Source: Minisyncoccota bacterium (GTDB lineage: Bacteria > Patescibacteriota > Minisyncoccia > Phycocordibacterales > JABAAK01). From it: a stretch of DNA of 64,000 bases. Under the pieces are notes generated by a model. That model was not told the origin of the DNA and ran no database searches. It saw only the letters and a list, made by a program, of their open reading frames with translations. The stretch is taken from assembly GCA_958295675.1 (NCBI GenBank), contig OY282360.1, positions 52,133 through 116,132 on the forward strand. Direction: 5' to 3'. Position numbers and translations under genes: made by a program. Below, one piece after another: positions 3,014 through 54,913 of this stretch (the first letter of the stretch is position 1; every line of letters begins with the position of its first letter).

Positions 3014-4126
3014 CTATTTTTCAAGCAGCGGCGAAATAATTGTGGTAAGTGTTGTGTCATCAGCACCGCGAATCATAAGCGGTTTTGTTGCATCATTCAC
3101 CACACTGAAAACAATACGGTCGTCAGATATGACTGACAGCGCATCACTGACAAAGCGATAATTAAAGGACGGTAATGTATCAACCTTGCCTCGCATGGTT
3201 GCCGGGACAATATTTCTGGTTGATCCGACTGTTTCATTATCAAAACCAAGGAGAATTGATGACGCATCCTTAATATCAAACGAAAGTTTATTCAATTTAT
3301 CTGAAAATAGACGGGCCTTTTTCAAAAAATTCAAAAAATCACTCCGTAAAACAGTTATTTCAAGATCAAAATTACCCGGTATTATATTCCTATAATCGGG
3401 GAAACTGCCTTTCACGCTGTTCATCTTTATCAGCACATTTTCAGTAACCACAGTTATGGTGCCATCATAAACATACAAACTGACATCAGGGCTTGCAATA
3501 CCCTCTAAAACACGCAATATTTTAAGCACGCTCTTGATGGGAATGATAACAGATATATCATCACTTTGTGTTTCCTCCAGCAAAAACCTTGCTTCGGCAA
3601 GACGAAATGCATCAGTTGAAACAAAGTAAACTGAATCATTTTTTGTGTGTAAATACACACTTGCTATTTCAGGTTTTATCGCGCTTTCTGATGCGGCATG
3701 CTGCACATTCTTAAATCCTTGTACCAGCACCTCTCGTTTGATAACAAAAGATGGTTTTCCATCGGGCTTATCACCTTCAACAACGACATCGTCACCGCTT
3801 AGGATATATATTTCTGAGGTGCTGGTGTTGGTGCGGACAAGAATCTTCTTTTCCTCAAGTTCAATGGTTGTCATTGTATCTACTAACGATCCGACAACGC
3901 CGTCCAGTGCATGTATAGGAATAAAGGCTGTTCCATCCCGAACCTCGTCAACATCAACGGTGTATATAATATTAAAATCAAACTGCTGAGTTTTGAAAGA
4001 AACTTTTTGTGAAGAAACCTGAACAAGAATACCCCCGGATGATGAGCCCGGCACCTCTTTCGCAACAACTCTTGCGAGGGTGTTTGTGATGTTTTTCAAT
4101 ATATCTGTCTGTAGTGTAAATTTCAT
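3014..4126 (-). CDS. dnaN: DNA polymerase III beta sliding clamp
   Basis: 370 aa, immediately downstream of dnaA on the same strand; three-domain clamp length; ATG verified at 4126. Confidence 0.85.
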   Translation of the reverse strand: MKFTLQTDILKNITNTLARVVAKEVPGSSSGGILVQVSSQKVSFKTQQFDFNIIYTVDVDEVRDGTAFIPIHALDGVVGSLVDTMTTIELEEKKILVRTNTSTSEIYILSGDDVVVEGDKPDGKPSFVIKREVLVQGFKNVQHAASESAIKPEIASVYLHTKNDSVYFVSTDAFRLAEARFLLEETQSDDISVIIPIKSVLKILRVLEGIASPDVSLYVYDGTITVVTENVLIKMNSVKGSFPDYRNIIPGNFDLEITVLRSDFLNFLKKARLFSDKLNKLSFDIKDASSILLGFDNETVGSTRNIVPATMRGKVDTLPSFNYRFVSDALSVISDDRIVFSVVNDATKPLMIRGADDTTLTTIISPLLEK

Positions 4127-4358: not shown

Positions 4359-5720
4359 TTATATGTCAATTGTTTTCATCAAAGAGTCAAAATCTTTCTG
4401 AACAATGGAATTACTTTGCATCTCTTTCTGTATTTTTTCACATGCGTGCATGACTGTTGTGTGATCTCTGTTTCCGAATTGTTTGCCGATAAAGGAATAC
4501 GAAAGCCCTAAGTGCTCTCTGAAGATGTACATTATCACCTGTCTCGCATGCACCACCTCCCTTTTGCGCAACTTTGTTGAAAGAAGACCTGGTTGTATTT
4601 TATAAAATTCACAGACAATTTCAACAACATGTTCGTACGGTACAGAGGTTTTGGGGCGCACATGATTCCGTATATACTTCTTAACAGTAACAAGATCAAC
4701 CTGTTTTTGAGATGATTCCGCGGTGTGAAGGTGGATGCTTTTCAATGCCCCGCTCACCTCCCGTATATTTTTTGATACCTTTTCCACAACATAATCAATC
4801 GCATCGGGTGTCATATTTAAGCCCATCTTTCCTGCTTTTTCGGTGCAAACAATACGCATATCCTCATATTTTGGCTGTTCAATATCAATAACAACACCGG
4901 AGTTCAGGCGCGTTCTGATGCGGTCTTCCATTTTGTCCAGTTCCGCCGGGGGTTTGTCTGATGAAAGAACTATCTGCGCGTTTTTGTTTACCAGTGCATT
5001 GAACAGGTGAAACAATTCCATGAGAGTTGATTCGCTTTTCTGTAAAAAATGCACATCATCTATGACAAACAGCTGATAACTTCGGTACATATTCCTGAAT
5101 TCCTTCATGCGGTCTTTTTTCAGCGCAGAGATATAGTTTTCCACAAATGTTTCACTGGTTGTGTAATGCACATTTATTGAAGGATTTATTTTTTTTATCT
5201 TGTTGCCGATTGCCTGCAGAAGATGTGTTTTACCGACACCGGTCGGTCCGTATACATAAAACGGGTTGTACATTGTTCCGAATTTTTCTATAATTGTCTG
5301 AGCCGCTGTATATGCGAATCTGTTGTAAGGAGCAATAACAAAATCTTCAAAGGTAAGATCAGGATTAAGATTGGTTTCTTTATCAAAAGTATTCAATTCA
5401 AGCGGGAAACTTTTTATTTTACTCTTCGGTTTCACCGCTTTCTTGATTATCCTTCGTGATATGGTTAATTTTACACTGCGGACATTGGGACTTGCTTTCA
5501 TAACCTCAGAAGCAATGATACTCTGATAGTTTTTTTGTATCCACCCGCGGGTTAATTCATTCGGCACACCCAAAACAAGCACTCGCCCCTCTTCTTCAAA
5601 CCTGAGCGGAAATACACCCGAAAGCCATGTGTTAAAACTGTTCGCTGAAATGTACTCTTTAACAATCTCAGATACTTCAATCCATAGTGTTTGTATATCA
5701 AGGATGCGTGCAACATTCAT
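4359..5720 (-). CDS. dnaA: Chromosomal replication initiator DnaA
   Basis: 453 aa; Walker [20 protein letters not shown] box, C-terminal DnaA-box binding domain ([11 protein letters not shown]); ATG verified at 5720. Confidence 0.95.
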
Positions 5721-5864: not shown

Positions 5865-5890
5865 TCAACAAACATAGAGTGCAAACTATT

Positions 5891-10508: not shown

Positions 10509-10573
10509 ACACAGTAGTATACATCACTACAGGGAAGTTACTTGTTTCTTCGTGAATACGGCGATCCTCAACG

Positions 10574-12948: not shown

Positions 12949-12954
12949 ACGATG

Positions 12955-13566: not shown

Positions 13567-14000
13567 ATAGTTACTTCAATATCATCATCAGGAGCATCGT
13601 CAAACATAAGGTTAGTATTCAGATCATTCACTTTATTTGAATCATGAGTGGCCGCGCTTGACACATCTTCCGAGGTGCTTTGCCGCATTTTCCGTTCCAC
13701 ATATTTTTCATTTCCTTCCTTTTTCCACACATACATTTTTTTGCCGGTAAAAAAACGGATTATTGACTGCAGTACAACTGAGAACGGCTGATTGTTAAAA
13801 TTGAAAAACGCAAGCAATCCCGCGAGGAGCGCGACAGGGGACCCCAAAAACAAGGCGGGCAAGAAACCACCGGCAAAAAAGAAAAGAAATATCATAAAAC
13901 CACCCGCACCGCCGAGATACAACAACTGTTTAAAACTGAGCCCGAAGATGATAGTATCGGAAACATCCAAACTTTGCGGAACTTGAAAGCGCATACGCAC
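13563..14000 (-). CDS. PrgI/VirB3-like small membrane protein
   Basis: 145 aa, two adjacent TM helices, sits immediately upstream of VirB4 with 4-nt overlap, as VirB3/PrgI does in conjugation loci. Confidence 0.55.
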   Translation of the reverse strand: MRMRFQVPQSLDVSDTIIFGLSFKQLLYLGGAGGFMIFLFFFAGGFLPALFLGSPVALLAGLLAFFNFNNQPFSVVLQSIIRFFTGKKMYVWKKEGNEKYVERKMRQSTSEDVSSAATHDSNKVNDLNTNLMFDDAPDDDIEVTI

Positions 14001-14083
14001 ACAGTATACAACATATCAACAGCGCAAGACCAAACTCACGATCAAATCATGTATTACCACCTTCGTCCGTCCGAGGTCTGCCA

Positions 14084-16549: not shown

Positions 16550-16557
16550 ACTCTATA

Positions 16558-18186
16558 TTACTCAAAAAACAACAGAATGTACTCCGGAGGAAGAGATTTT
16601 TGAATTCTGGTAATTGAATCGGTCATCTCCTTTTCTATTTTACCTCGGAACACACCGGCATTCCGATAGAGTGCGCGGGCATCTGATGCACTCAAATCCT
16701 TCCAAGTTCTCGTCAAGGCACTCAGATCGTTTTCTCCGACAAACACTCTTCCGAGTGAACTATATGCCTCCGAACGCCGCTGAGCCGCGGCGAAATCATA
16801 ATTCTCAAAATCGATTGATGGGGGTGTCAACGCCTGCTGTGCGGATGATGTCGGAAGAGTAACCTGTCCGGCATGTCCGAGCGCAAACAGGAGGTAAGCA
16901 ACCTCTTCTGTTTTTTGCGGCACGGTGTTTAGCATCAATGTAACTGCATTCCCAAAATCATTCAATGTGCAGTTTGTTTTGTATTTACCGGAGACAACCG
17001 GCGGTACCGGCGGATAGTGCCTTCCCAAACATGTCCGATCAGTCTCGTTCTCAAGGCATACAAACCTCCCTGTCTGACCCAATGTGGTAATATTCCTAAT
17101 TTCCGAAGAGGAATAGTGTCGTGCTGAACACTGCGCTTCCTCTTCTCCTTCATGGCACCCCATCTCTTGTGTTGTACATACTTCAGTTTCTGCGTTTTCC
17201 GCGCATACTCGCACATAGTTAACAAAACATCCGGGAAGAAAATCAAGGTCGTTGCGGTTTTGTACAAAAACACGCGCTGTTCCTGATCCAAAGGCGCGCC
17301 GCGTTGTTTCTTCAACCACCTGTCTCAATGAAATGCCCTGATAAAGAGATCTTTGTCCATCTTCACTCCTTTGTATATGCGTTTGATATCCGTTGAGAGA
17401 ACCGCCGTTCCCATAATCCTCATAAGTACCGACAAGTTCAATATATGCCTTTGCGGTTGTTTCATACACACCCTTCATGATAGACAGTCGACTCCGGTCT
17501 GTTTTCAATCCGCACCACGAATCAATAAACGGAGCGCGCTGTAGGTAGGAAGAGGGTCGTTTGATCATGTCAATAAGCTTCGCTCCTCCTCTGTATTGTT
17601 TGATCGCGCCGTCATGCACACCGATAAGATTGTTTTCCGGTCGGAGCACCGGTGTAGTTACAGTAAGATGTTCGGCAGAATCAAGCAGGGGTTCAGCAAC
17701 GCCATTTTGTGAATTCAAGGGGTTTTGATTCGTAACTGTGGCGATTGAAGAGGTCGCGCAGTTAATAGCAGAATCTGCCGTAAACAATAAAGTGTTCGGC
17801 ATTAATAAGGACGGAGTTCTGATATTTTTTAATATATATGAAAAAAGTGTGCTTCCGTCCCGAATAAGGATGTCGGCGACCACTAGTTCCATATATGTTT
17901 TGTTAAAAGAAACGCCGTTGAGTAAATTGACATCTTGCCCTATCCCTGCATTTCGGTTTATTGCTGTTTGTTCCGATGATATCCTCGGAATTTGTTCAAT
18001 ATAACTTCTGATACGGTCAATCTGCTGCTGTCGCTGTTTGATTTTTTGAGCAATTTGATCAATACTCAATTCACTTTTGCGGATGGTTTGAGCTGATACA
18101 GCATTATACTGACAAGAAACAAGAATAAAAAACAGAAAGAAAGCAAGAAAGATAAGGTGCGTGATTTTTGTTACATATATCGTCAT
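16558..18186 (-). CDS. Secreted Cys-containing hypothetical protein
   Basis: ~542 aa from ATG at 18186; signal anchor LIFLAFFLFFILVSCQ; multiple Cys in the C-terminal half. Confidence 0.55.
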   Translation of the reverse strand: MTIYVTKITHLIFLAFFLFFILVSCQYNAVSAQTIRKSELSIDQIAQKIKQRQQQIDRIRSYIEQIPRISSEQTAINRNAGIGQDVNLLNGVSFNKTYMELVVADILIRDGSTLFSYILKNIRTPSLLMPNTLLFTADSAINCATSSIATVTNQNPLNSQNGVAEPLLDSAEHLTVTTPVLRPENNLIGVHDGAIKQYRGGAKLIDMIKRPSSYLQRAPFIDSWCGLKTDRSRLSIMKGVYETTAKAYIELVGTYEDYGNGGSLNGYQTHIQRSEDGQRSLYQGISLRQVVEETTRRAFGSGTARVFVQNRNDLDFLPGCFVNYVRVCAENAETEVCTTQEMGCHEGEEEAQCSARHYSSSEIRNITTLGQTGRFVCLENETDRTCLGRHYPPVPPVVSGKYKTNCTLNDFGNAVTLMLNTVPQKTEEVAYLLFALGHAGQVTLPTSSAQQALTPPSIDFENYDFAAAQRRSEAYSSLGRVFVGENDLSALTRTWKDLSASDARALYRNAGVFRGKIEKEMTDSITRIQKSLPPEYILLFFE

Positions 18187-18188
18187 AC

Positions 18189-20690: not shown

Positions 20691-21595
20691 TTTTCAGACG
20701 AAACACCTGATTGCAGTGAATTCACAACAGATAGTGCGATATTGATAAATGCGTTACGAGCCCCCTCTGTAGTCGGATCTTGAATATGTTGGAACATTTT
20801 TCCTGTAGTAAGCAGCTTGATCGCATAAAAATAGTTTTCCGCGGTATTGGATGCAACAGCGACATCAAGAGCTTCACAAAGATAGGTTATTCTCTCCAAA
20901 ATAAGATAATACGATTCATATACATCATTCGGCACATTTCTCGGTATAGTTTTCAGTGTAAAATCACATGCCGCTTGAACTCTTTTTGTGTCGGGAGACA
21001 CCGCGGTATTTTTTGCGAAAATCTCAAATACAAGATCGCCTATCGGTTGTTTTTCTTTAGAAAAAGATTGGAGTGCAAGCAGAAACTCACTCAGTACCAT
21101 CTCTCGGGAAACTGTGTTGTCAATATTCAAATGAACACGAGGCAAACCGCGCCGCTCAACCCGTTTCAGAAAATAGTCAGTGGATATATCAACAAATTGA
21201 TCTTTTTCTTCCGGAGAAACCTCAGAACCGTCAATATCACCCAGCAAGAACCTCATTACAATATCCTCAGTGAACTCCCCCGGACCGCCATACAACAATT
21301 CGTTAACGGTTATATTCTTGGTCAAGGCAATATCTTTGTGATACGGAAAAGAAGAGGCATTCAACGGATCGGATTCGGTGATATCTTCAAGCCAATCAGG
21401 AACACCATCACCATCACTGTCTGATTCTGTTGTGTGGGTTTCAAGACGAATACCGTGTTCGTCCAATTGGGATGTTGGCGTAGATTTCGAGAAAAAAATA
21501 ATAAGGAACACTGCGGCAAAAAAGATAAACAGCAACGCGATTCGTTTGCGAACAAGGGGTATGTTTTTAGGAAGTAATCGCATACCGTACAGCAA
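20687..21595 (-). CDS. Membrane-anchored hypothetical protein (first gene of the T4SS-like operon)
   Basis: 302 aa; N-terminal TM IALLFIFFAAVFLIIFF; acidic DSDGDGVPDW stretch. Confidence 0.55.
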   Translation of the reverse strand: MLYGMRLLPKNIPLVRKRIALLFIFFAAVFLIIFFSKSTPTSQLDEHGIRLETHTTESDSDGDGVPDWLEDITESDPLNASSFPYHKDIALTKNITVNELLYGGPGEFTEDIVMRFLLGDIDGSEVSPEEKDQFVDISTDYFLKRVERRGLPRVHLNIDNTVSREMVLSEFLLALQSFSKEKQPIGDLVFEIFAKNTAVSPDTKRVQAACDFTLKTIPRNVPNDVYESYYLILERITYLCEALDVAVASNTAENYFYAIKLLTTGKMFQHIQDPTTEGARNAFINIALSVVNSLQSGVSSEN

Positions 21596-37504: not shown

Positions 37505-38473
37505 CTATTCTTTCAAATGTTTTTCAACAATTGAAACAACTTGATCAACACTAAGTTGTGAATCAACACCCTGCGGACTACCTCCGATAGTCGGCGATCC
37601 TCCCCACCCCGGCTCTAATTCATTGAGTTCCATAAGTGCTGCTTTAATATCTGCAAACTTCTTTTCAAAAGTGCAGACAGTGAACTTCTTGTATGGATCT
37701 TTTCCGTGCTGTTTGAAGGAGGGATTCAACGCAACAACAACCGGAGCGAGAGAATATCCGACAGTTGTTCCGGCTCGGTGTGTACTCTCCACAAATGCAA
37801 TTCTGCCGTCCGCTCTGGTTTCATAAGTAATATCACCATTTTCCAGCGCCTTTACCATATCCAATTTTTCTTCATGCACCTGCTTGCGGTATATTTCTGA
37901 TTCATTGCCGGTTTTTAACCACTCTTTCATTGATGCAACACGATCGGCAAGCGGTACCTTGAAGTCTGATATTTCCGCAGCAATCGCAGCAAGCACTTCT
38001 TCATTCTGATTATTCCATAATGTTTCTTGTGTGGGCAGCGGTTTCGGTCCGAGGTACCCTCCTTGTGCGAATTTATCAGAATCAGCAATGATTTTTACTC
38101 GTTCCATCGCTGCGTCATCAAGGACTCCGTCTTCAGATCGAATTGTAAATACAGCCATTGCGCCAACCGAATCAAGGTCAGCACGAACAGTGGCGAATAA
38201 GGCATCTTGAGGTGGGGTTTCAAATATAACAGCTTCCTCAATGGCGGCTGTGTCAGAATCCCCACCTGTGTGTTGGGGATCAATATTCACAACACAACGC
38301 TCCGCAAGTTCCGGTACAGTGACCTCAATACCGTATACATTATTACTTTCAAACACTTGATCATTATGCTCCCTTGCAGCCGGTATTGGTCTGGGGTCAA
38401 GTACTGCAAACGAATAAAAAGATGGTTTTTCCCGTTGCTCTTTATTTCCAAAATTATCAAATTTATTTTCCAT
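37505..38473 (-). CDS. Hypothetical protein (no recognisable domain; GC higher than the adjacent cassette)
   Basis: ~323 aa from MENKFDNF; acidic; ends at the left edge of the AT-rich cassette. Confidence 0.5.
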   Translation of the reverse strand: MENKFDNFGNKEQREKPSFYSFAVLDPRPIPAAREHNDQVFESNNVYGIEVTVPELAERCVVNIDPQHTGGDSDTAAIEEAVIFETPPQDALFATVRADLDSVGAMAVFTIRSEDGVLDDAAMERVKIIADSDKFAQGGYLGPKPLPTQETLWNNQNEEVLAAIAAEISDFKVPLADRVASMKEWLKTGNESEIYRKQVHEEKLDMVKALENGDITYETRADGRIAFVESTHRAGTTVGYSLAPVVVALNPSFKQHGKDPYKKFTVCTFEKKFADIKAALMELNELEPGWGGSPTIGGSPQGVDSQLSVDQVVSIVEKHLKE

Positions 38474-38599
38474 ATATACATCATAATAACACGCAAAACT
38501 CAAGACAGAATATATAAAAAACAATAAATGGATTTCTATAGATATCCAGGGTGCCGTTCAGGCGATTATGCTCGAACTATAGCACGAAAGTTGAAAGAG

Positions 38600-38760
38600 T
38601 ATTTTGAGAACAACACGCGCGCTCAGTAAGCACGAGAACTAGTCGCTCCGCCCTCCCGTGCCAATCACCGCTGTTATTTTCTTTTTCCATTCAATCCGTC
38701 CACTCCGTTTTTCCCACTCTGTCCTTTTGCTCCGCAAAAGTTCGAATCTGGAAATGCTTT
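38600..38760. repeat. Left copy of a ~130-nt imperfect inverted repeat flanking the AT-rich cassette
   Basis: CGCGCTCAGTAAGCACGAGAACTAGTCGCTCCGC…CTCCCGTGCCAATCACCGCTGTTATTTTCTTTTTCC is the reverse complement (roughly 80-85% by eye) of 43895-44025. Confidence 0.6.
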
Positions 38761-38776
38761 ATTATCTGTAGTATAA

Positions 38777-39691
38777 TTAGGCATCATCAAGATTATATTG
38801 TTTTAGTAATTCAACTCTCCAGTTAATAACTAGATTATTAAAAATCTCTACGCAATATTTTGTTAAAACCGTTTCTTCTAATAGAAATAAATTTGTATCA
38901 TAACACCTTTGTGTACGCGAATACTTATAATCTAATATACATTCCTCTTCCTCTCTTCTGATGTCTCCAATTTCAAATATAGATAATACACTAATAAAAT
39001 AATCTGTTAGAACAGTTTCTCCAAGAGGTTCAGACATGCTTAATCCAAGGTTTGGATTTCCAAATGGAGCTTGTGTTGGCATTATCTTATTCTTGTTCGT
39101 TTTTTGAATAAAATAATACCTTTCTACCCTAAAATTTATAAAAGAAAAAACTGTTTTTAATATCTGTTCATCAGTCATACTTTTTTTAAAAAAACTCTTT
39201 TTTGCCGCCATTTCTGATTGTACAAGAGTATTTAATTGTTCATTGAGTGTTTTAAATACTGATTCCTTAACAGACTTTTTCTCTTTCCGCTTTTTACACA
39301 AATTTTCTATGGTCATGTCATTCATAAAAACTTGCAACGCAAGGCTTTCAAAATAAATTAACAATCTTTGTTCTCTATCAGAGTATTTAAATTTAGTATT
39401 TTTAGGAGCTCGCATATCTTTTAGCATCTTATTGTGAAATTCCTTTATCTTTGCAGCGGAATTGCTTAATGAAATTGCGTGAGCACGTGAAATATGCATG
39501 AGAATAATTGCAAAATCATTTAAAGAAATACTTCCTTCCTCTTTTGCAGAATTCATTGTTTTTTTGAGAAAGTGGAAATTCTTTCTTGTCCCTTCAAGAT
39601 CAAACTTCACTCTAATTAATTTTTTTCGCCAATCTTTGAGCAAGTCAGCGCATTTTAACTCTGTTTTGTTTATGTTATCTCTTGTCTTCAT
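38777..39691 (-). CDS. Hypothetical protein of AT-rich cassette (possible abortive-infection/defense accessory)
   Basis: 304 aa, K-rich helical, no motif recognised; markedly lower GC than the chromosome backbone. Confidence 0.55.
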   Translation of the reverse strand: MKTRDNINKTELKCADLLKDWRKKLIRVKFDLEGTRKNFHFLKKTMNSAKEEGSISLNDFAIILMHISRAHAISLSNSAAKIKEFHNKMLKDMRAPKNTKFKYSDREQRLLIYFESLALQVFMNDMTIENLCKKRKEKKSVKESVFKTLNEQLNTLVQSEMAAKKSFFKKSMTDEQILKTVFSFINFRVERYYFIQKTNKNKIMPTQAPFGNPNLGLSMSEPLGETVLTDYFISVLSIFEIGDIRREEEECILDYKYSRTQRCYDTNLFLLEETVLTKYCVEIFNNLVINWRVELLKQYNLDDA

Positions 39692-39785
39692 AACTGAAAG
39701 GAAATTGCAGATACATAAAATATACCATATCTATTCTTTCGCACTGGGTCAGCGCCTACGATACCTCTAAGAAAAAGAAATTATA

Positions 39786-41258
39786 TCATGATGCTACAGA
39801 AGCTGACACTTTCTTTCTTGCGTCAATCAAAACAATATTTTCATCTTTTTCTAGACCAATCTCTTCTAGAATTTTAATAACTCTTTCATATTCACTTTTC
39901 TCAAAAAATAATATAACTGTAAAACCATTAAATGTTCTGTTTGCTCTTTTGTATATTTCTACCTGTTTTTGTAAATTTTGCTTTAATTTTTTATTTTTTG
40001 CAAGTTTAAATTCAACCAATGTCTTGTCTCTCTTGCTCGAGATAGTAAAATCAACTGAACCTCGACCATTATTCACCTCACGGTTTACATCAAAATCAGA
40101 ATTGTAACATGTCAAATGGAATAATAGTTGAAGATCTCTTTCATTGCTGATACATCCATCTTCACGATAGAAAAGCTTATATCCGTCCATGTTTTCTATA
40201 AAATCTTTCAGAATAAGAATCCTTTTCTTTGCCTCATGATAACTTCTCACTGGCTTATAAAAACCAAGGTTTTGTAATCGCCCAATCAGAGATTGTGCAT
40301 TTTCTACAAAGAAGGTATCAGAATAATCAACCTTTTGTTGACTGATATTTATTGCTTGGTCACCATTTTCTTCCTTATATTTTATGTAGTAATCAAAGAG
40401 CTCCGGAAACCTAATGAAAGTTGATCGTATCGCTGTATTCCTTTCTTCCTTTTTCATCTCCCTATTTCCTCTTTCGTACTGTTTTATACGATTTTTATAG
40501 TAATTATTTATTTGATGGCGTAGTTGAGCATTATCAATAGTACTTGGTATTTCTGTAAAATCTTCAATCAGACCTTTTCTATTAATCCATACATCATCTT
40601 TGGTCAATATATCTACTGGCGTTAAAATGACATAGTCATTTTCAAATTTTGGCAAGATAAAATTTTTTTCTGCCCACACTTCCGTATCATAGTTAAAATA
40701 AGATTTCTTGACCCTGAAAGTTCTCGTTAGTCTTTTGTCAATGTATCGTTTTGTAAATTTTTGGGTGTATTCAAGTAAAAAATGCTTGATTAAATTGGTA
40801 ACAAAATCACTTATATTATCCCTACCAACGCCATCCTTAACCAAGCACAATTTTTCTAAATGCGCCCCTCTCGTTATATTTTCTTCACCAAAATTTTGAA
40901 AAACAGTATTTAAATTTCCGTGCAGAGCTTCTGCAAATTTCATTCCGAGTGCGTGTCCTTTGTTTCCGATCACAGAATAACCAAGCCAGTTTTGCTGAAC
41001 CTCACTGAACATATACCATGACTTCATTTTGCCAACATCTACTTCTTCAGAAGATTTGTCTTTCACGAAAATTAAATATTTGATTATTTCATTGTGTAAT
41101 TTTTGATATTCTTCCTTTTCGCTATTAAAAAGAAGGAAAGGATCAATAAAAAGAGGTAAATCAGTAATAAGGGATATATTAAATGCTCCATATTCTTTGA
41201 GATCGTCTTTTTTTACATTAAAATAGTCTGAAAAGTGGGGTTTCACATGCTTGTGCAT
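39786..41258 (-). CDS. Hypothetical protein with C-terminal PD-(D/E)xK-like nuclease motif
   Basis: 490 aa; C-terminal …GRGSVDFTISSKRDKTLVEFKLAKN fits D…(D/E)xK spacing of restriction-endonuclease-like fold; N-terminal 380 aa unassigned. Confidence 0.5.
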   Translation of the reverse strand: MHKHVKPHFSDYFNVKKDDLKEYGAFNISLITDLPLFIDPFLLFNSEKEEYQKLHNEIIKYLIFVKDKSSEEVDVGKMKSWYMFSEVQQNWLGYSVIGNKGHALGMKFAEALHGNLNTVFQNFGEENITRGAHLEKLCLVKDGVGRDNISDFVTNLIKHFLLEYTQKFTKRYIDKRLTRTFRVKKSYFNYDTEVWAEKNFILPKFENDYVILTPVDILTKDDVWINRKGLIEDFTEIPSTIDNAQLRHQINNYYKNRIKQYERGNREMKKEERNTAIRSTFIRFPELFDYYIKYKEENGDQAINISQQKVDYSDTFFVENAQSLIGRLQNLGFYKPVRSYHEAKKRILILKDFIENMDGYKLFYREDGCISNERDLQLLFHLTCYNSDFDVNREVNNGRGSVDFTISSKRDKTLVEFKLAKNKKLKQNLQKQVEIYKRANRTFNGFTVILFFEKSEYERVIKILEEIGLEKDENIVLIDARKKVSASVAS

Positions 41259-41444
41259 ATGATATTATTATATCAAAACTGTCCTGTCAGGGCTTATTTC
41301 TCTTGCTTGTGATTGATTCAGGATTTTCTTCTGAATATATAAGGTTTGAAATACATAGTTCATTTTCTTTTTTCTTCATATCAACATTCTTCATTGCCCT
41401 GTTGTATCCTGTATGTTAGGCATTGAGGAGCCATCTTTTTCATT

Positions 41445-42536
41445 TTATTTTCCTGATTTAGTGCGGTTATCTTTTTTGCATAACATCTGGCAATTTTTTG
41501 CAATTGTTTTACCACCTTCATGCCAAGGGGTAATATGGTCAGCCTCCATCTCTTGAATCTCAAACCGTTTTTCGCATTTTGCGCAGATACCCTTTTGCCT
41601 CTCATACGCTTCTCGCTTCATGTTCTCGGTAAAGGTACGAATAGAAAGATGTTTTTCCTCTCTCGTTAAGACATAGGGGTAAATGCCAGATTTTTTAGTC
41701 ACATCTTCGTCTTGCATTAATTCAGTAATCTCAGTCTCTAGTTTTTTAGCATTCAGGTTTTGAGTATTGAATTGGTTATACAGTTCACCCCAATGTACAC
41801 TCGCCATCTCATTGCGGTAATTGGTAAAAGTCTTTCGCACCCAAGCAACCACCCTTTGAAAGTATTCCCATAATTCATCAGCATTTTTATCGTGCTGATG
41901 TTTTGCCATGTACTCTTCTATTTCTCCGTTATTGATCCAGGAAAGTGCAGTCTCTAGATAGTCCTGTCTTATCGGCGAACCCTTCAGAAGTGATCCATCA
42001 TCATTCGCCAAAAGGTATGCTGCACAACCTGTTTTGCTAAATTTTAGCTTTGCGTCAGAGAGCCACGGTCCGGTGTAGACCGCATTTCGTATTTCCTGGT
42101 CAGTTAATTCTGCACCGGCAATATTAATAATCCTAAACCAATCAAGCCGCTCTTTATCTGTGCCTTCGCAGAAGTAAATCATTAGTTCATAATTTAAAAT
42201 CTGGTCTTGTTCCTCGCCAGTTAAATTATGAAAATAGTGATTATTCAATGAAAAGTCACCGTTTATATATTGTCCTATACTTATAGTTCGTTGTTGACCG
42301 TCCAGCATTTCATAATTTCCACCTTCTTTTACCATCCAGTACATAACATTGAGTGGAAAACCATTTTTAATTGTTTCAATTACGGCATCACGCTGTTTGC
42401 CGGTATAGACAAACTCTCTTTGGTATTTAGGACGAATGTCTAATCTACCACCATAGGCGGTAACACCTTCCTCATCACTGTCTTTGTATTTCTCAACCAC
42501 ATCACGAACCAAAATCTTGTGTAATTCAATTTTCAT
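41445..42536 (-). CDS. DUF262 (ParB-like, DGQQR motif) + C-terminal HNH nuclease protein
   Basis: MLDGQQRTISIGQY (DGQQR signature) in N-terminal half; C-terminal CAKCEKRF…ADHITPWHEGGKT…NCQMLCKKDN = HNH (Cys4 + His-Asn-His); start overlaps MTase stop. Confidence 0.75.
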   Translation of the reverse strand: MKIELHKILVRDVVEKYKDSDEEGVTAYGGRLDIRPKYQREFVYTGKQRDAVIETIKNGFPLNVMYWMVKEGGNYEMLDGQQRTISIGQYINGDFSLNNHYFHNLTGEEQDQILNYELMIYFCEGTDKERLDWFRIINIAGAELTDQEIRNAVYTGPWLSDAKLKFSKTGCAAYLLANDDGSLLKGSPIRQDYLETALSWINNGEIEEYMAKHQHDKNADELWEYFQRVVAWVRKTFTNYRNEMASVHWGELYNQFNTQNLNAKKLETEITELMQDEDVTKKSGIYPYVLTREEKHLSIRTFTENMKREAYERQKGICAKCEKRFEIQEMEADHITPWHEGGKTIAKNCQMLCKKDNRTKSGK

Positions 42537-42537
42537 G

Positions 42538-43566
42538 TTATTTTTTTGCTTTTTTATTTCTTATTAATATTCTGAAGTATGTATACTTTCCATCTATCGA
42601 TAAATCCTTATCATCATCACCTTTTCTAAACTTTACTATCTCAAACTGGTCAGGATTATATTTGTCAAGGAATGTGATTGGGACACCTATAACACCATCA
42701 TAATTATAAGGTATATCGGTATATTTATCTACATTAATTGCATTATAATTATCATATTTTGGATATTCTTCCGGTGTGTATTTTTTATAAAGTACGATAT
42801 CGTTTTTGTGTTTTGTAACTTCAAGATTTGTAAACCAACATGAAGTTGCTACACGAGCAATCTTCTTGCCATTTTCATCAATATGGTGAAATTTTTCCCA
42901 ATCGTCTGGTACAACAAAAAACATTCCTACATTAAAATTAGTATAACCAGTTCGAATTTTATTTTCCTTGAAAAATTTAAAAATCTCTTTATATGTAATT
43001 GCATTTGTATTACCAATAATCAAGAATTCTTTATCAAGTTCTGTTAATTGTGTAACATACTCACGAAATAATGAAAATGGAGGGTTAGTAACCACCACAT
43101 CCGCTTGTTTGAGTAAATTGACACATTCTTCACTACGAAAATCACCATCACCTTCAAGAGGTTTTGCAACATTAGCATCTTGTCTCAGTAATTGCTCAAC
43201 GTCTTCCAAATTGACTGCACCATCATTATTAAGATCTTTAACTTCATTAATTTCAATTCTAAATGGCTCCTTTCCTTCAGGTTTTAATCCCTCTATTTCA
43301 ACGAGTGGCAACTGCCCACCAGCAATTGGTGACCTTATATAACTTGTGGCAATAAGTTTTTTAAGTTTCAGTGCGTTAAAATTAGCGGCAAAATACTTAA
43401 AAAAGTTACTTTCATAAGGATCATCGCAGTTACAGTACACAACCTTATCATGAAATTGTTCTTTGTAATGTCTTAACTCTTTCTCAATATCAACAAGTTG
43501 AGTATAAAACTCATCTTTTTTTGCTTTAGATGCCTGATGAAGAGCTGTATTTGAAGATTTAGCCAT
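42538..43566 (-). CDS. DNA methyltransferase (amino-methyltransferase, NPPF motif IV; N6A or N4C)
   Basis: DEFYTQ near N-terminus and VVVTNPPFS catalytic motif; 342 aa; translationally coupled to the DUF262-HNH gene. Confidence 0.8.
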   Translation of the reverse strand: MAKSSNTALHQASKAKKDEFYTQLVDIEKELRHYKEQFHDKVVYCNCDDPYESNFFKYFAANFNALKLKKLIATSYIRSPIAGGQLPLVEIEGLKPEGKEPFRIEINEVKDLNNDGAVNLEDVEQLLRQDANVAKPLEGDGDFRSEECVNLLKQADVVVTNPPFSLFREYVTQLTELDKEFLIIGNTNAITYKEIFKFFKENKIRTGYTNFNVGMFFVVPDDWEKFHHIDENGKKIARVATSCWFTNLEVTKHKNDIVLYKKYTPEEYPKYDNYNAINVDKYTDIPYNYDGVIGVPITFLDKYNPDQFEIVKFRKGDDDKDLSIDGKYTYFRILIRNKKAKK

Positions 43567-45022: not shown

Positions 45023-45751
45023 ATGGCGGTAGAAATTGTATCCCTGCTTATTGTTATCGGCATTCTACTATATGTGTTGCCGTCCCTTATTGCGCATTAT
45101 CGTGGACACAAGCACACACTCCAGATTATCCTACTCAACCTTTTCCTTGGTTGGACAATTGTTTGTTGGTTCGGTGCATTCGTTTGGTCTGTTCTGACAG
45201 ACACACCACCAATTGATCTGAAACAGGTACTTAAGAAAATATTGATCACACTTCTTATTGTCACACTGCTTTTCATTGGATTAGTGTTCGGAATAAATCG
45301 GTTTCTGTACACATCTATTACTTCAGAATCGGAAGATATTTCTTGGCAACTCTCCACACAAGTAGGTTATCTCATATCACCATATCCATTCGCACAATTA
45401 CATTCAGACACTGCGCATGGCAGTCAATCATCTCTCTACATACATTGTCGGCATGACTTTCTGCAAGTACATATAGCTACCAACTTGCACGGACAGTTAC
45501 CCGGTGATGAATCAGATAAGCAGGTAAGGGCGCGACATCGAATAGGTCAGGGTGACTGGATAGATTTGGAATGGATTGCAAAACGCGGCGGTGTTACTTA
45601 TCCAGACACTGATTTTGTTCATTTTGTGAATTCACTGGACCAAGAAAAATCTGACCTTGTGATTGAATTTGAAACCGGCACCAAAGTTCAATTCCCTATT
45701 TGGAACGGTTACGACGATATGCGCAATCATATTACTTGTTTGCGGCAATAG
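45023..45751 (+). CDS. Superinfection-immunity-like (Imm/SIP family) membrane protein with C-terminal extension
   Basis: N-terminal …LPSLIAHYRGHKHTLQIILLNLFLGWTIVCWFGAFVWSV matches the two-helix superinfection immunity protein signature; second TM pair follows; 242 aa. Confidence 0.6.
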   Translation: MAVEIVSLLIVIGILLYVLPSLIAHYRGHKHTLQIILLNLFLGWTIVCWFGAFVWSVLTDTPPIDLKQVLKKILITLLIVTLLFIGLVFGINRFLYTSITSESEDISWQLSTQVGYLISPYPFAQLHSDTAHGSQSSLYIHCRHDFLQVHIATNLHGQLPGDESDKQVRARHRIGQGDWIDLEWIAKRGGVTYPDTDFVHFVNSLDQEKSDLVIEFETGTKVQFPIWNGYDDMRNHITCLRQ

Positions 45752-46764: not shown

Positions 46765-47172
46765 TTATACCCAGAAAATTTCTATACTCGGATACAAACG
46801 ATCGTGCGGCAAGATAACACCAATAACACCTAATGCAACACCAGTATATTTCGGATGACTATTTAAATAATAGTTGCCAAATTGTGACATTCGTTGTATT
46901 TTCTTTTTTGTAATTCGGTCTGATAGACAAAAATCAAAATCAATTATATTATCAACATTTTGTGTGTTTCTATGTGAAACATTAGAAGATGTTTCACGTG
47001 AAACACTCTTAACTTCAAATATATAAAGCACCTGATTCTTTTTTGCAATAATATCCACTTCTATAAATTTAGCTTTGTATTGCATGGCTATTATTGTATA
47101 TCCACAACTTTTCAAATACTTTTCCGCATATTTTTCCCCAGTATTTCCAATAAATTTCTGAAGTGTAAACAT
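46765..47172 (-). CDS. YraN/UPF0102-family predicted endonuclease (PD-(D/E)xK fold)
   Basis: GEKYAEKYLKSCGYTII…FIEVDIIAKKNQVLYIFEVKS matches the YraN signature; contains a perfect parS 16-mer in its coding sequence (46990-47005). Confidence 0.7.
   Translation of the reverse strand: MFTLQKFIGNTGEKYAEKYLKSCGYTIIAMQYKAKFIEVDIIAKKNQVLYIFEVKSVSRETSSNVSHRNTQNVDNIIDFDFCLSDRITKKKIQRMSQFGNYYLNSHPKYTGVALGVIGVILPHDRLYPSIEIFWV
46990..47005. promoter_or_regulatory. parS consensus site (TGTTTCACGTGAAACA) inside the YraN-like gene
   Basis: Perfect match to the 16-bp palindromic chromosomal ParB/Spo0J binding consensus. Confidence 0.7.
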
Positions 47173-47196
47173 AGTTCTCTACAATTTATATACCAT

Positions 47197-47858
47197 TGTT
47201 TCACGTGAAACATGTACAAATACACATATTTCACACACAAGTGTTTCACGTGAAACAGTTTCCTTGTGAAACGATTTACGTAAAATAAGGATATTTTTGC
47301 ACAAAGATGTTTCACGTGAAACATGCAGAGCCGTTAAACACACACAAGTGTTTCACGTGAAACAGTTTCCTTGTGAAACGATTTACGTAAAATAAGGATA
47401 TTTTTGCACAAAGATGTTTCACGTGAAACATGCAGAGCCGTTAAACACACACAAGTGTTTCACGTGAAACAGTTTCCTTGTGAAACGATTTACGTAAAAT
47501 AAGGATATTTTTGCACAAAGATGTTTCACGTGAAACATGCAGAGCCGTTAAACACACACAAGTGTTTCACGTGAAACAGTTTCCTTGTGAAACGATTTAC
47601 GTAAAATAAGGATATTTTTGCACAAAGATGTTTCACGTGAAACATGCAGAGCCGTTAAACACACACAAGTGTTTCACGTGAAACAGTTTCCTTGTGAAAC
47701 GATTTACGTAAAATAAGGATATTTTTGCACAAAGATGTTTCACGTGAAACATGCAGAGCCGTTAAACACACACAAGTGTTTCACGTGAAACAGTTTCCTT
47801 GTGAAACGATTTACGTAAAATAAGGATATTTTTGCACAAAGATGTTTCACGTGAAACA
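47197..47858. repeat. Tandem array of 13 perfect parS sites: six identical 107-bp direct repeats, two parS each, plus one flanking copy
   Basis: TGTTTCACGTGAAACA found at 47197, 47242, 47308, 47349, 47415, 47456, 47522, 47563, 47629, 47670, 47736, 47777, 47843; 107-bp period verified by coordinates; each unit also carries a GTGAAACG half site. Confidence 0.85.
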
Positions 47859-47961
47859 TGTTTCACAAGGTAACACTTACAAGGTGTTTATAGCATTATA
47901 GTAGATACTTGTATAGAATCCTATTTTATTAATAAAAAGAATGGGACAGATATATTATTTC

Positions 47962-47993
47962 AAAAAAATTCCTCTTTTGTGTAAAAGAGGAAT
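47962..47993 (-). terminator. Rho-independent terminator for the minus-strand small membrane protein gene
   Basis: On minus strand: TTCCTCTTTT-acac-AAAAGAGGAA followed by TTTTTTTG. Confidence 0.5.
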
Positions 47994-48021: not shown

Positions 48022-48309
48022 CTATGAACACTCAATTGATGTAAATGGAAAGATCTGCATCAACAGAACTCCGCCGAAGATGGTAAGACCGATCGTCAAG
48101 AAAAACACAAGTTCTGAGACACCTCCGTCTTTAACCCGCTTCAGCACAGAAATCGCTACTGAGATGACGGATGGGACGAGAAAAGCAAGCACAACGGCAT
48201 TGATCATTACTGGTGCCACATTCGGCAGTCCGGTTACAACAAAAATGCTGAGTATCAATGTGGCAACAAGAACAGAGAGAGTTCCCAGCCTAGTTGTTTG
48301 TTTTGCCAT
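48022..48309 (-). CDS. Small two/three-TM membrane protein, hypothetical
   Basis: 95 aa from ATG at 48309 with GGAG 8 nt upstream; hydrophobic helices throughout. Confidence 0.5.
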   Translation of the reverse strand: MAKQTTRLGTLSVLVATLILSIFVVTGLPNVAPVMINAVVLAFLVPSVISVAISVLKRVKDGGVSELVFFLTIGLTIFGGVLLMQIFPFTSIECS

Positions 48310-48480
48310 GTTTCTATCTCCTTTTATGGAAAGAAAGTGGAAATCTAGCAGGCGAGCACGAGAAAAGGTATTTTGCCTCCTACAAGCACTCAAGTACATA
48401 ATACCACTTTTAATGATATTTCACAATAAGTAAAATATCCATTTTTTAAAAAGTATCCCTATGTGAAAAAATTGACAATT

Positions 48481-48774
48481 TTATATCTTCACCTTATAAT
48501 TTTTCCCATTATATATAATAGCAACCCCTTCCTTTTCAAGTATATGTTTTTTTCGATGAATACCGCCACGATTGTAGTTACCGAGTGTGCCATCACTTTT
48601 TATCACTCTGTGGCAGGGAACTGACGGATTATGGTTATGTGCCATGAGAGTGCCAACAGCTCGTTGTGCATTAGGATTGCCGGCTTTGCGCGCAACTTCT
48701 TGGTATGTCATGGTACTTCCTTTCGGTATTGATGAGACAATATATAGAACTTTTTCTTTAAATGCGGTTGTCAT
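48481..48774 (-). CDS. Methylated-DNA-protein-cysteine methyltransferase DNA-binding domain protein (minimal MGMT/Ogt-like)
   Basis: 97 aa; active-site motif VPCHRVI with Cys retained; only the C-terminal alkyltransferase domain present. Confidence 0.7.
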   Translation of the reverse strand: MTTAFKEKVLYIVSSIPKGSTMTYQEVARKAGNPNAQRAVGTLMAHNHNPSVPCHRVIKSDGTLGNYNRGGIHRKKHILEKEGVAIIYNGKNYKVKI

Positions 48775-49054: not shown

Positions 49055-50386
49055 ATGTTTGATATAAAAGAAATAAAAAATGTTGTGCAGCAGATTGCGG
49101 AGACGAGACAATTATCCGAGGATGCATTATGGTCGGCGATTGAAGCGGCTTTTGCCGCGGCGTACAAAAGAGAGTATGCAAAGAACGATCAAATTATCCG
49201 AGCGCGTATCAATCGCGAGAACGGAGAATTCAATTTTTTTCAGGTGAAACAGGTTCTTGATGAGTCACAAATTCTTCCGGAGGATGAACAGTCGGAAGAT
49301 GAGGAGGAAACGCGTGTGCGGTTTAATCCGGAACGACATATGATGGTTGATGACGCGCAATTAGTCCGACAGGGTATTAAGGCAGGTGAGGAGATTCTGT
49401 TTCCGCTTGAAGTAAAGACCGATTTCGGTAGAATAGCGGCACAGTCAGCGCGACAGGCAGTAACGCAAAAGATACATGAAGCGGAACGGGAAGCTGCAAT
49501 GTCAGAGTTTGAAGGGAAAGAGCACACACTGGTGCATGGGCAGGTACAGCGCATTGAGCGTGGAAATGTGTTTGTTGATCTCGGCAGGACGGTCGCGATT
49601 CTTCCGTTTTCCGAACAAATTCGCAACGAGCGATTTAAACAAGGGGATACAATTCGCACATATATTCAGTCAATTGATACAACACGAAGAAGCGGCGGCT
49701 TTGTCCGCCTCTCCAGATCGGTGCCGGAGTTTGTTGTGAAACTGTTTGAGATGGAGGTGCCTGAGCTCATGGATGGTGTTTTAGAAATAAAAGCAATAGC
49801 CCGGGATCCTGGTGTACGGACAAAAATTGCAGTTGAAACAAAAGATCCGTCGGTTGATCCGGTGGGTTCGTTCGTTGGACAGCGTGGTGTGCGAGTAATG
49901 ACAGTGAAGAGTGAATTGGGGGGTGAACAGATTGATATTATCAATTGGTCAGAAAATGTTAATGAGTTTATCGGTGAATCATTACTGCCGGCGGAGGTAA
50001 TGGGTGTGACGGTTGATAATAATGCACAACGGGCATTAGTGCGGGTGACTGATGAGCAAATACCGATTGCCATCGGTCGCGGTGGTCAGAATATTCGGCT
50101 GGCCGCACAACTAACCAAATGGACTGTTGTTATTGTGGATAGTAGTGAGATTGAGGTTGCTCAGGCAAATCCTGAGGGTGAAATAAATATCATAAAAAAA
50201 GATGATCGTAATGCCACTCCGAACCAAAAGAAAGACGCGGCGGACGAAAAATCAGACATGGAATTGGCGGGCAATGAAGACACCAATAGTAATGGACAAA
50301 AACAAGAAAATATTACAGAAAGTGTTCCTGATGATATAGGAACAGATGAATTAAAAGAGAATGCAGATGAAAAAAAACCAGAGTGA
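49055..50386 (+). CDS. nusA: Transcription termination/antitermination factor NusA (with acidic C-terminal tail)
   Basis: 443 aa; NusA N-terminal domain, S1 domain (HTLVHGQVQRIERGNVFVDLG), two KH domains, long D/E/K-rich tail. Confidence 0.9.
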   Translation: MFDIKEIKNVVQQIAETRQLSEDALWSAIEAAFAAAYKREYAKNDQIIRARINRENGEFNFFQVKQVLDESQILPEDEQSEDEEETRVRFNPERHMMVDDAQLVRQGIKAGEEILFPLEVKTDFGRIAAQSARQAVTQKIHEAEREAAMSEFEGKEHTLVHGQVQRIERGNVFVDLGRTVAILPFSEQIRNERFKQGDTIRTYIQSIDTTRRSGGFVRLSRSVPEFVVKLFEMEVPELMDGVLEIKAIARDPGVRTKIAVETKDPSVDPVGSFVGQRGVRVMTVKSELGGEQIDIINWSENVNEFIGESLLPAEVMGVTVDNNAQRALVRVTDEQIPIAIGRGGQNIRLAAQLTKWTVVIVDSSEIEVAQANPEGEINIIKKDDRNATPNQKKDAADEKSDMELAGNEDTNSNGQKQENITESVPDDIGTDELKENADEKKPE

Positions 50387-53839: not shown

Positions 53840-54115
53840 ATGATAAATAAAGCAAACTTGATTGAGAAAGTGCAGGAGGAAAACGATTTTACCAAAGCAC
53901 AGGCGGAGCAAATTGTTGATATGATATTTGACTGCATTGTGGACGAGGTGAAAAAAGGTAGCACTGTTTCCGTTGCCGGCTTTGGTATTTTTGAGGCAAA
54001 AAAACGAGCTGCACGAATGGGGCGAAATCCGAAGACAGGTGAAACCATTCAAATCAAGGCATCTACTTCTCCGAAGTTTCGCCCGGCAAAGGCATTCAAG
54101 GAGGCGGTTAACTAA
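53840..54115 (+). CDS. hup: DNA-binding protein HU
   Basis: 91 aa; MINKANLIEKV…GFGIFEAKKRAARMGRNPKTGETIQIKAS…PKFRPAKAFKEAV. Confidence 0.9.
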   Translation: MINKANLIEKVQEENDFTKAQAEQIVDMIFDCIVDEVKKGSTVSVAGFGIFEAKKRAARMGRNPKTGETIQIKASTSPKFRPAKAFKEAVN

Positions 54116-54208: not shown

Positions 54209-54913
54209 ATGCGGTCTGTACTCATTCATAACTGGAAAACATATATACCATCTGAAGATGCGGCTGTTGCACTTGCTGCTGCGTTACATGCACCGACTGA
54301 TACACTTTTGGTTGTCTGTCCATCCGCAGTGCATATACCCGTGATTAGGGAACACCTTTCAGGAAAAGGGATACATCTCGGAGCGCAGGATATTAGCGTT
54401 TCACGTGAAACACCGCAGACAGGCAGGTTATCAGGGGATCAACTCACTGATATGGGCGTACAGCATGTCATTGTAGGACATGCGGAAACCAGAGCAAACG
54501 GAGTGATTAATGCTATGGTTGTAGAAAAGGTAAAACATGCTACGGCAACAGGTATAACGCCAATTATCTGTATAAGCGAGCAAAAGAAGGATGAACCGTC
54601 AATAGGGGATGAGGTAGTCGGACAACTGCAAGAAATTGTGGAAAAAACTGACTCTATAGAACAAAGCATCATCGCGTATGAACCAACCGCGCACATTGGT
54701 GCGGAAAACGCACTTGATACGCAGGCGATAGGGGTTATAACAGCACGATTGCGCGATGTGCTGAAGAAAGACAGTATCCCCATACTCTATGGCGGGTCTG
54801 TTGATGCTGACAATGCGGTAGATATTATGAAAAATGGCGGGGTAAACGGCTTTCTGCTCGGACGGGCAAGTGTCAAGGCGGACACAGCAAATGCTATAAC
54901 CGCATTATTTTAA
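54209..54913 (+). CDS. tpiA: Triosephosphate isomerase
   Basis: NWK start motif, GAQD, GHAETR (GHSERR), YEPTAHIGA (YEPxWAIGTG), YGGSV; contains near-perfect parS at 54397. Confidence 0.85.
   Translation: MRSVLIHNWKTYIPSEDAAVALAAALHAPTDTLLVVCPSAVHIPVIREHLSGKGIHLGAQDISVSRETPQTGRLSGDQLTDMGVQHVIVGHAETRANGVINAMVVEKVKHATATGITPIICISEQKKDEPSIGDEVVGQLQEIVEKTDSIEQSIIAYEPTAHIGAENALDTQAIGVITARLRDVLKKDSIPILYGGSVDADNAVDIMKNGGVNGFLLGRASVKADTANAITALF
54397..54412. promoter_or_regulatory. parS-like site CGTTTCACGTGAAACA (15/16) inside tpiA coding sequence
   Basis: One mismatch at position 1 relative to TGTTTCACGTGAAACA. Confidence 0.5.

Follow-up and report, generated by a model that had tools for sequence, protein, structure and literature searches.

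In the ParB/Spo0J-parS systems of Bacillus subtilis, Caulobacter and Corynebacterium, the chromosomal centromere consists of 1-10 copies of a 16-bp parS site spread over 5-40 kb or more in the origin-proximal region, with weaker sites in nearby genes. The ParB proteins of B. subtilis, Caulobacter and Myxococcus bind parS, close as a CTP clamp and slide off the site. The centromere of the F plasmid, sopC, is made of 12 tandem repeats of 43 bp, and SopB binds the 16-bp inverted repeat that each of them contains. Most bacteria cluster their parS sites within 5-40 kb, scattering being limited to a few lineages such as Bacilli, and tight clustering has been argued to avoid collisions between SMC complexes (PMC8357415). 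Myxococcus xanthus carries 22 parS repeats in 3 kb, and this cluster binds ParB in vitro (PMC3899335). Single-molecule work on engineered 7x, 13x and 26x parS DNA showed that the force of condensation by ParB rises with the number of sites, and the conclusion of this in vitro work was that more parS sites lead to a greater clamp loading rate (PMC8299390). In the present work, we analyzed a 64,000-nucleotide stretch of DNA (hereafter the window; positions 52,133 to 116,132 of contig OY282360.1, assembly GCA_958295675.1) from a Minisyncoccota bacterium, in which 13 perfect parS sites form a tandem array of ~0.66 kb. A preliminary description of this DNA had assumed that chromosomal parS sites are normally scattered singly; as the two papers on clustering show, this was overstated and biased toward B. 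subtilis.

To define the array, we used a mismatch-tolerant search of the window, the chance level being obtained from 100 shuffles. There were 14 perfect matches to TGTTTCACGTGAAACA, against 0.00 expected, and this 16-bp palindrome fits the chromosomal parS consensus TGTTNCACGTGAAACA. The 13 perfect sites and the six identical 107-bp repeats, each with two full sites and a half-site, that had been described beforehand were both recovered. The parS-related features are the following:

47197..47858, no strand: 13 perfect 16-bp parS palindromes TGTTTCACGTGAAACA, with a start-to-start spacing of 45 bp and then of alternating 66 and 41 bp
47232..47860, no strand: 107-bp tandem repeat, 5.9 copies, 100% matches, 0 indels (TRF)
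47859..47867, no strand: half-site TGTTTCACA adjoining the last parS at the distal end of the array, read from the sequence
46972..47005, no strand: half-site TGTGAAACA (46972-46980) and 14th perfect parS (46990-47005), both within the coding sequence of a YraN-like protein
54397..54412, no strand: one-mismatch parS CGTTTCACGTGAAACA in tpiA, from the mismatch-tolerant search
49236..49251, no strand: two-mismatch parS-like site in nusA, from the same search; also present in the related contig L123

Read in the direction of the adjacent yraN gene, the repeat unit consists of a parS, a 50-bp spacer, a second parS and a 25-bp spacer. Besides its two parS sites, each 107-bp unit contains one degenerate parS or half-site (GTGAAACG; GTTTCCTTGTGAAACG; CGTTTCACAAGGAAAC in the long spacer) and an AT-rich spacer motif. 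The half-sites resemble what would be left of a third parS in each unit; the equivalent position in the related contig L121 holds CGTTTCATGTGTAAACA, which is 3 mismatches away from parS. Outside the array, the parS within yraN was also found in L122 and L123, while the version in L124 has 1 mismatch. The site in tpiA (encoding ...VSRET...) is kept across relatives as well, being perfect in L123 (2890) and having 1 mismatch in L124 (1418). The nusA site is a possible weak parS.

From these and the following data, we consider it likely that the array is the main chromosomal centromere of this Paceibacterota bacterium, and that it was built by tandem amplification. The observations in favor of this are the identity of the sites with parS, their origin-proximal chromosomal context, the conservation of both position and sites in relatives, and the turnover in copy number. 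The extra sites in tpiA, nusA and yraN also count toward a centromere, as such sites are typical of ParB regulons.

The array is real and, as we read it, an extreme form of an ordinary bacterial centromere. Like the parS of B. subtilis, Caulobacter and Corynebacterium, it has the identical 16-bp consensus, an origin-proximal position and weaker sites in nearby genes. It differs from the centromeres of these model organisms by its compactness (13 sites in 0.66 kb, or ~20 parS per kb, in identical tandem units), by having no parAB nearby and by carrying an extra conserved non-parS motif in each unit. The Myxococcus cluster (22-24 sites in ~3 kb, 4 kb upstream of parA) likewise packs many copies of parS closely together on the chromosome near the origin and offers a precedent for a 'regional' bacterial centromere. 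However, its sites vary in sequence and are ~140 bp apart (~7 per kb), whereas those of the window are all perfect, in homogenized units and about 20 to the kb. Furthermore, the host of the window array is an uncultured, ultra-small-genome bacterium of the candidate phyla radiation (CPR), unlike Myxococcus. The likeness to sopC that had been pointed out in the preliminary description holds for the tandem direct repeats, each with inverted repeats, and both have about one palindrome every 41-43 bp, the short spacing of 40-42 bp found in the array and its orthologues being close to the 43-bp period of sopC. It does not extend to residence on a plasmid, adjacent parA/parB genes or similarity to plasmids and phages: sopC is plasmid-borne, lies beside sopAB and uses another palindrome, while the array of the window is part of a chromosome, uses canonical parS at two spacings (41 and 66 bp) and lacks similarity to any plasmid record by blastn.

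The context of the array is chromosomal. The window contains ruvC, a class A penicillin-binding protein gene, dnaN, dnaA, rpmH, rnpA, yidC, a type IV secretion system (T4SS)-like cluster and the genes for PNPase and UvrD, as well as those for class-I lysyl-tRNA synthetase (LysRS) and the CCA enzyme, 5 tRNA genes, nusA, ppa, tig, clpP, hup, tpiA, pgk, recJ and comEC. Two of these genes, both identified with Pfam, served as references for the origin:

4359..5720, minus strand: dnaA, the reference for origin proximity, 41.5 kb from the array
3014..4126, minus strand: dnaN, downstream of dnaA

The distance of 41.5 kb between the array and dnaA, in agreement with the ~41 kb given previously, amounts to 5.7% of the 724,510-bp contig. 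The length of this contig, the class-I LysRS and the large number of genes that could not be annotated are consistent with a genome of the Patescibacteria (CPR). Thus, the array is origin-proximal, whether or not oriC itself is co-located with it.

Further evidence was obtained from independent contigs of relatives, which we reached through homologues of the YraN-like protein. In these contigs, orthologous arrays sit between the genes for an MGMT-like and the YraN-like protein, and the flanking proteins of distant relatives are 49-66% identical. The neighborhood of the window array comprises:

46765..47172, minus strand: UPF0102/YraN-like predicted nuclease gene (Pfam PF02021, E=6e-13), right-hand neighbor of the array in all relatives
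47968..47993, minus strand: intrinsic terminator of the upstream small membrane-protein gene, bounding the distal side of the array intergenic region
48022..48399, minus strand: small membrane-protein gene without Pfam match, between the MGMT-like gene and the array
48481..48774, minus strand: MGMT-like DNA-binding-domain protein gene (PF01035), left-hand neighbor of the array in relatives

The syntenic comparison that had been suggested yielded arrays of 3-11 perfect sites at the same locus:

L123: 11 sites in 5 units; different ENA sample, ~98% nucleotide identity, with 3 substitutions in the unit nearest to yraN
L025 (OZ241963.1, complete 661,662-bp 'Candidatus Paceibacterota' chromosome, the closest named relative): 7 sites, spaced 68/42/69/64/42/69
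L121: 11 perfect sites
L122: 9 sites with a 107-bp period, the units being only 88% identical
L124: 7 sites with irregular spacing
L125: 3 perfect and 4 one-mismatch sites
L126: 6 perfect and 2 one-mismatch sites
L127: 7 perfect and 1 one-mismatch site

Beyond these arrays, L138, whose relationship is more remote, has just one parS, located 10 bp upstream of yraN, and no parS was found in L128, where the locus is non-syntenic. When nine arrays were pooled, they contained 74 perfect and 8 one-mismatch 16-mers, while the identity of the spacers between genomes was 36-75%. Near-perfect 16-mers amid such diverged spacers point to a sequence-specific binding protein that selects on all 16 positions. 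The comparison of these sequences indicates strong selection on the 16-mer together with concerted evolution of the units. Copy number also turns over between strains, as shown by the presence of 5 versus 6 units in strains that are 98% identical. The expansion or homogenization proposed in the preliminary description gained support from this comparison, L123 having 5 units instead of 6, one of them diverged, and the units of the window have been homogenized or recently amplified. The small membrane-protein gene beside the array is, for its part, only ~31% identical to its positional equivalent in L123 (8943-9242) despite the 98%-identical flanks, and looks like a replaced cassette.

Six 107-bp units that are 100% identical are hard to assemble from short reads, and this could suggest that the array is an artefact of assembly, i.e., an expanded or collapsed repeat, or else a generic repeat resembling a miniature inverted-repeat transposable element (MITE). 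Both possibilities had been raised beforehand and both ran into contrary evidence. Homologous arrays were resolved in independent, long-read-style assemblies of other samples, some of them with diverged units (88-98% identity), and a search of the window for a unit-specific 31-mer, tolerating up to 3 mismatches, gave matches in the six array units only. We therefore regard an artefact or a generic repeat as extremely improbable; the count of 6 units is as assembled.

The same comparison bears on the suggestion that the array was recently captured from a plasmid or phage, where it served as the centromere, or that it belongs to an integrated mobile element. Plasmids typically have tandem iterated centromeres, sopC of F being an example. 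The local GC content is 0.33, and the flanks of the array abound in genes related to defense and mobility (EcoRI-type methylase, GmrSD, superinfection immunity, tRNA genes). In addition, 8 IMG/VR contigs were found to carry 3-6 perfect parS. On the other hand, blastn with the array region as query disclosed no similarity to any of 72,556 records of plasmids and 50,697 of phages, no parAB is adjacent, and the position of the array between two housekeeping-type genes is conserved across relatives that differ by 35-50% in protein sequence. The 8 viral contigs are those with at least three perfect sites at array-like spacing among 2.9 million, and none of the 8 carries the spacer motif of the clade. 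A captured centromere is thus hardly credible.

Other types of repeat arrays were also considered. A CRISPR array was rejected because the spacers are two alternating repeated sequences and no cas gene was among the Pfam hits; the reading as a TIGR array was rejected as well.

The AT-rich motif of the long spacers is the second conserved component of the units:

47272..47837, minus strand: long-spacer motif GTGCAAAAATATCCTTATTTTACGTAAATCG, 6 copies, one per unit, from dissection of the unit

This motif (AAAATATCCTTATTTTACGT) has the core AAAAwAyCyTTrATTTTyCGT, which was found in every long spacer of 8 of the 9 arrays (window, L025, L121, L122, L123, L125, L126 and L127), and its orientation with respect to yraN was the same in each case. 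After the core come first a GTGTTTCACA-type half-site and then the next parS. Its density was 7.4/kb within the arrays and 0.04/kb outside (a ~200-fold difference), the few outside matches being loosely similar. A metagenome scan for parS together with the clade motif returned 2 contigs, one of which, L137, was rejected as a clade array since it belongs to an unrelated organism (mnmE-gidA-gidB-parA-parB) and matches the motif by chance. The motif was rejected as a DnaA box (3 mismatches to TTATCCACA) and, by eye, as a site for integration host factor (IHF), as it does not fit WATCAANNNNTTR. IHF serves as an accessory factor at the parS of plasmid P1, and one may speculate, by analogy, that the partner of the motif is a bending or accessory protein. 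HU, whose gene is at 53840-54115 of the window, is a candidate for such a second factor.

If the array is a centromere, the ParB-CTP clamp model suggests how it would work. Each 16-bp palindrome would be a loading gate for one ParB dimer, and with 13 gates in 660 bp, the loading of ParB clamps onto the DNA on either side would be several times faster. The outcome would be one large origin-proximal partition complex, available for ParA-driven segregation and/or loading of SMC. Since loading would occur at a single chromosomal position, SMC complexes coming from different sites would not collide. We infer that, in an ultra-small cell with few ParB molecules, dense and perfect gates may make nucleation robust. 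Unequal recombination or slippage would keep the units identical by concerted evolution, while selection would keep each 16-mer perfect; tandem duplication and unequal exchange could explain both the identical units and the difference of 5 versus 6 units between strains. ParB binding, enhanced loading, recruitment of SMC and repression of a promoter are, in this scheme, what the observed sites would lead one to expect, and the selection on canonical parS suggests the presence of a ParB. Of the three roles put forward in the preliminary description, a super-loading site for ParB is the one that is best supported.

A third role proposed there was that of a transcriptional silencer. In this case, the array would mainly be an operator for a ParB-type or other palindrome-binding repressor of yraN and its neighbors, with no role as a centromere. 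A distance of 25 bp separates the first parS from the start codon of yraN (47172), and a promoter-like element was read in between:

47185..47192, minus strand: -10-like TATATAAA, read from the sequence upstream of the ATG of the YraN-like gene and not predicted by the consensus promoter scan

A TATAnT element occurs at the same position after the last parS in L121, L123, L124, L025 and L126; this conserved position suggests that, in the presumed promoter of yraN, the -35 region coincides with the proximal parS. The previously claimed overlap with this promoter thus stands as far as the array lies directly upstream of the gene, the promoter itself being presumed. A repressor is also consistent with the single parS found at the same place in the distant relative L138. 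However, repression needs one operator, and 7-13 perfect sites under selection would be superfluous; the consensus promoter scan predicted no sigma-70 promoter in the repeat units, and the sites within tpiA and nusA as well as the origin-proximal position fit a centromere. We consider a mainly regulatory role as very unlikely. Under the centromere hypothesis, ParB would probably repress yraN as a side effect, because of the proximal parS at the presumed -35 position.

Several points weigh against a centromere. Genes for ParB, ParA or SMC were found neither in the 64-kb window nor in ~150 kb of related Paceibacterota DNA; the search for ParB and ParA comprised a scan for the GERRxRA motif, tblastn with 23 ParBs and 1 ParA on the Paceibacterota DNA, and Pfam on large open reading frames. 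As far as the window is concerned, the Pfam, motif and tblastn results bear out the earlier statement that it is devoid of parA and parB. A 5-sequence ParB profile was compared with 5.8 billion proteins, and the best 120 matches were unrelated proteins of the Lachnospiraceae type. The cognate ParB is thus assumed, and the literature that we searched on ParB in CPR bacteria, Parcubacteria or Saccharibacteria contained nothing usable. That 13 sites are more useful than one is an extrapolation from the behavior of B. subtilis ParB in vitro. Finally, a pure ParB model leaves the conserved non-parS motif in every unit unexplained.

We also considered the relationship of the array with the origin of replication. 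In the window, the cumulative GC skew decreases from ~2.4 kb onward, reaches its minimum at 45.5 kb and increases beyond this point. Most of the genes to the left of the array are encoded by the minus strand, and most of those to its right by the plus strand. The change in sign of the GC skew and the switch in gene strand thus both fall at the array. For the window, L025 and L121-L124 (left-negative, right-positive skew), the minimum was at a distance of 0.5-3 kb from the array; it was near the array in L125, L127 and L138, and not near it in L126. In all cases, the skew is confounded with gene strand and was computed from stretches of 8-64 kb per genome. An oriC at the position of the array is plausible, though we would not put it forward as the expected situation.

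A stronger form of this proposal is that the locus is primarily oriC, or a composite of origin and centromere, 41 kb from dnaA, in which initiator sites would alternate with the parS sites and the AT-rich spacer motif would be an unwinding element or a site for an accessory factor. In addition to the skew minimum at or near the array in the window and most relatives, and to the divergence of gene orientation from the locus, it finds an argument in L124, whose orthologous intergenic region has 5 DnaA-box-like sites in 637 bp compared with 0.29 expected (P=1.3e-5; 0/5000 shuffles). In this region (9364-10000), 7 perfect parS are interleaved with the DnaA-box-like sequences TAATCCACA (twice), TGTGGATAG, TGTGGAAAA and TGTAGATAA, which makes it a candidate for a combined oriC and centromere. 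In L138, three boxes, one of them a perfect TTATCCACA and the other two with 1 mismatch, lie no more than 400 bp from the only parS. In the window itself, each unit carries a sequence that matches a relaxed version of the box:

47295..47838, plus strand: TTTTGCACA, one per unit, starting at 47295, 47402, 47509, 47616, 47723 and 47830; fits the relaxed DnaA-box consensus TTWTNCACA

The significance of TTTTGCACA as a DnaA box is weak and uncertain, and it is not conserved in L121 or L126. With up to 1 mismatch, no DnaA box was found in the MGMT-YraN region of the window, and no cluster of boxes in the whole 64 kb, including the surroundings of dnaA. The locus does have AT-rich stretches (47860-47960 and the spacer motif), with no defined DNA unwinding element and dnaA 41.5 kb off. 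The confounding of skew with gene strand and the distant minimum in L126 also speak against an origin at the array, and the AT-rich dnaN-dnaA spacer (4127-4358) is a conventional alternative for oriC. A locus that is primarily an origin or a composite is, in our opinion, unlikely.

This dnaN-dnaA spacer is extremely AT-rich and without canonical DnaA boxes, and the dnaA-rpmH spacer (5721-5891; 171 bp) contains one TTATGCACA. With oriC at dnaA, the genes between 7.2 and 31.7 kb would be head-on to replication.

A broader and tentative hypothesis, which we find possible and on the whole doubtful, is that, in this clade of Paceibacterota, the origin of replication and the centromere have been fused into one module that moved ~41 kb away from dnaA. 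Each unit would then combine two ParB gates with a second protein-binding or unwinding motif, the conserved spacer core mentioned above; its amplification would be concerted, as in eukaryotic satellite centromeres, and its flanks would be a hotspot for the insertion of defense islands.

To find out how exceptional such an array is, we scanned GTDB (one genome per species, 185,579 species) for three perfect parS separated by 20-50 bp. At least 120 species-level loci had at least three perfect parS within ~130 bp. Among the matches listed, most corresponded to a conserved triplet of Collinsella (39/39 bp), and there were 48 distinct spacing patterns. The other arrays, some of them at classical ParB loci, included the following:

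L027, 5384-5894: 10 sites with a 55-bp period between dnaX and tadA/gyrA, in a metagenome-assembled genome (MAG) of Bacilli
L093, 402-816: 9 sites with a 50-bp period in a complete Hyphomicrobiales chromosome
a gammaproteobacterial MAG: 9 sites
L017, 1014-1353: 7 sites directly upstream of parA-parB in a Lachnospiraceae
L041, 6325-6709: 6 sites between gidA and gidB

Dense arrays at classical ParB loci, as in L017, L041 and L027, count toward the interpretation of the window array as a centromere. Like it, the arrays of the GTDB scan are tandem or near-tandem, consist of perfect canonical parS and lie at chromosomal, origin-type loci. They differ from it in having at most 10 sites among the matches listed, simpler one-site units and, often, adjacent parAB or gidAB. 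The window array was the largest and densest among the matches listed, with its 13 sites, ~20 per kb, in units that are all identical. Thus, the exceptional character attributed to the array in the preliminary description is weakened by the published Myxococcus cluster and by the dense clusters of at least 120 species-level genomes, while its rank as the densest among the matches listed is retained. The short site-to-site spacing of 40-42 bp is kept across the clade, and is 37-57 bp in other lineages; because of this range outside the clade, a general rule of helical phasing for parS arrays was rejected. Our search of the literature disclosed no report on natural tandem arrays of perfect chromosomal parS, nor on chromosome segregation in CPR bacteria. 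These results suggest that dense arrays of perfect parS are an under-described, recurrent chromosomal architecture. As to the Collinsella triplet, it was identical, with its 39-bp spacing, in more than 70 species-level genomes (e.g., L003 2083-2176, L019 80-173), and is apparently a conserved compact centromere architecture that has not been described.

The orthologous loci of the Paceibacterota constitute a natural series, ranging from 3 to 13 perfect parS at one position, with a copy number that differs even between 98%-identical strains. This series could be used to test the effect of parS multiplicity, addressed so far only with engineered arrays, on ParB-CTP clamp loading, size of the partition complex and loading of SMC. 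It also means that bacterial centromeres can evolve by tandem amplification and homogenization, and it offers a first handle on chromosome segregation, and possibly on the position of the origin, in CPR bacteria.

Other observations concern the surroundings of the array. A low-GC island (0.33-0.36) extends from 37505 to 43566 of the window, between the LysRS gene and a tRNA-Gly gene, and is not present at the syntenic position in L025. It encodes an EcoRI-type adenine methylase (42538-43566), a GmrSD_N+HNH (DUF262) nuclease (41445-42536) and unannotatable proteins of 490, 304 and 339 amino acids. L121 and L122 have other defense genes, located on the opposite side of the array (type I restriction-modification, Fic, SocA/Panacea, AbiJ), so that the neighborhood of the centromere looks like a hotspot for defense islands. 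The 339-residue protein, which has no Pfam match (37505-38524, minus strand), is 94% identical to one encoded by L124 (17467-18486), compared with 42-64% for the neighboring proteins, which suggests a recent horizontal transfer between lineages. In L122, two paralogues of this protein stand on either side of an extra perfect parS at 16574. A protein with an Imm_superinfect (superinfection-immunity) domain is encoded at 45023-45751, between two tRNA-Pro genes, and is conserved beside the array locus in L121-L124. Farther away, large unannotatable open reading frames are clustered at 8933-21595 with a T4SS-type pilin and a TraG-like P-loop ATPase, a typical surface or uptake machinery of CPR bacteria. 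Finally, a repeated intergenic element (gaactattaaggaatccttaatagttcaAATACCCTTATTTTTcc...ttgtaaa...) was found upstream of defense genes in L121 (6090-6240) and L122 (4570-4720 and 6850-7000).

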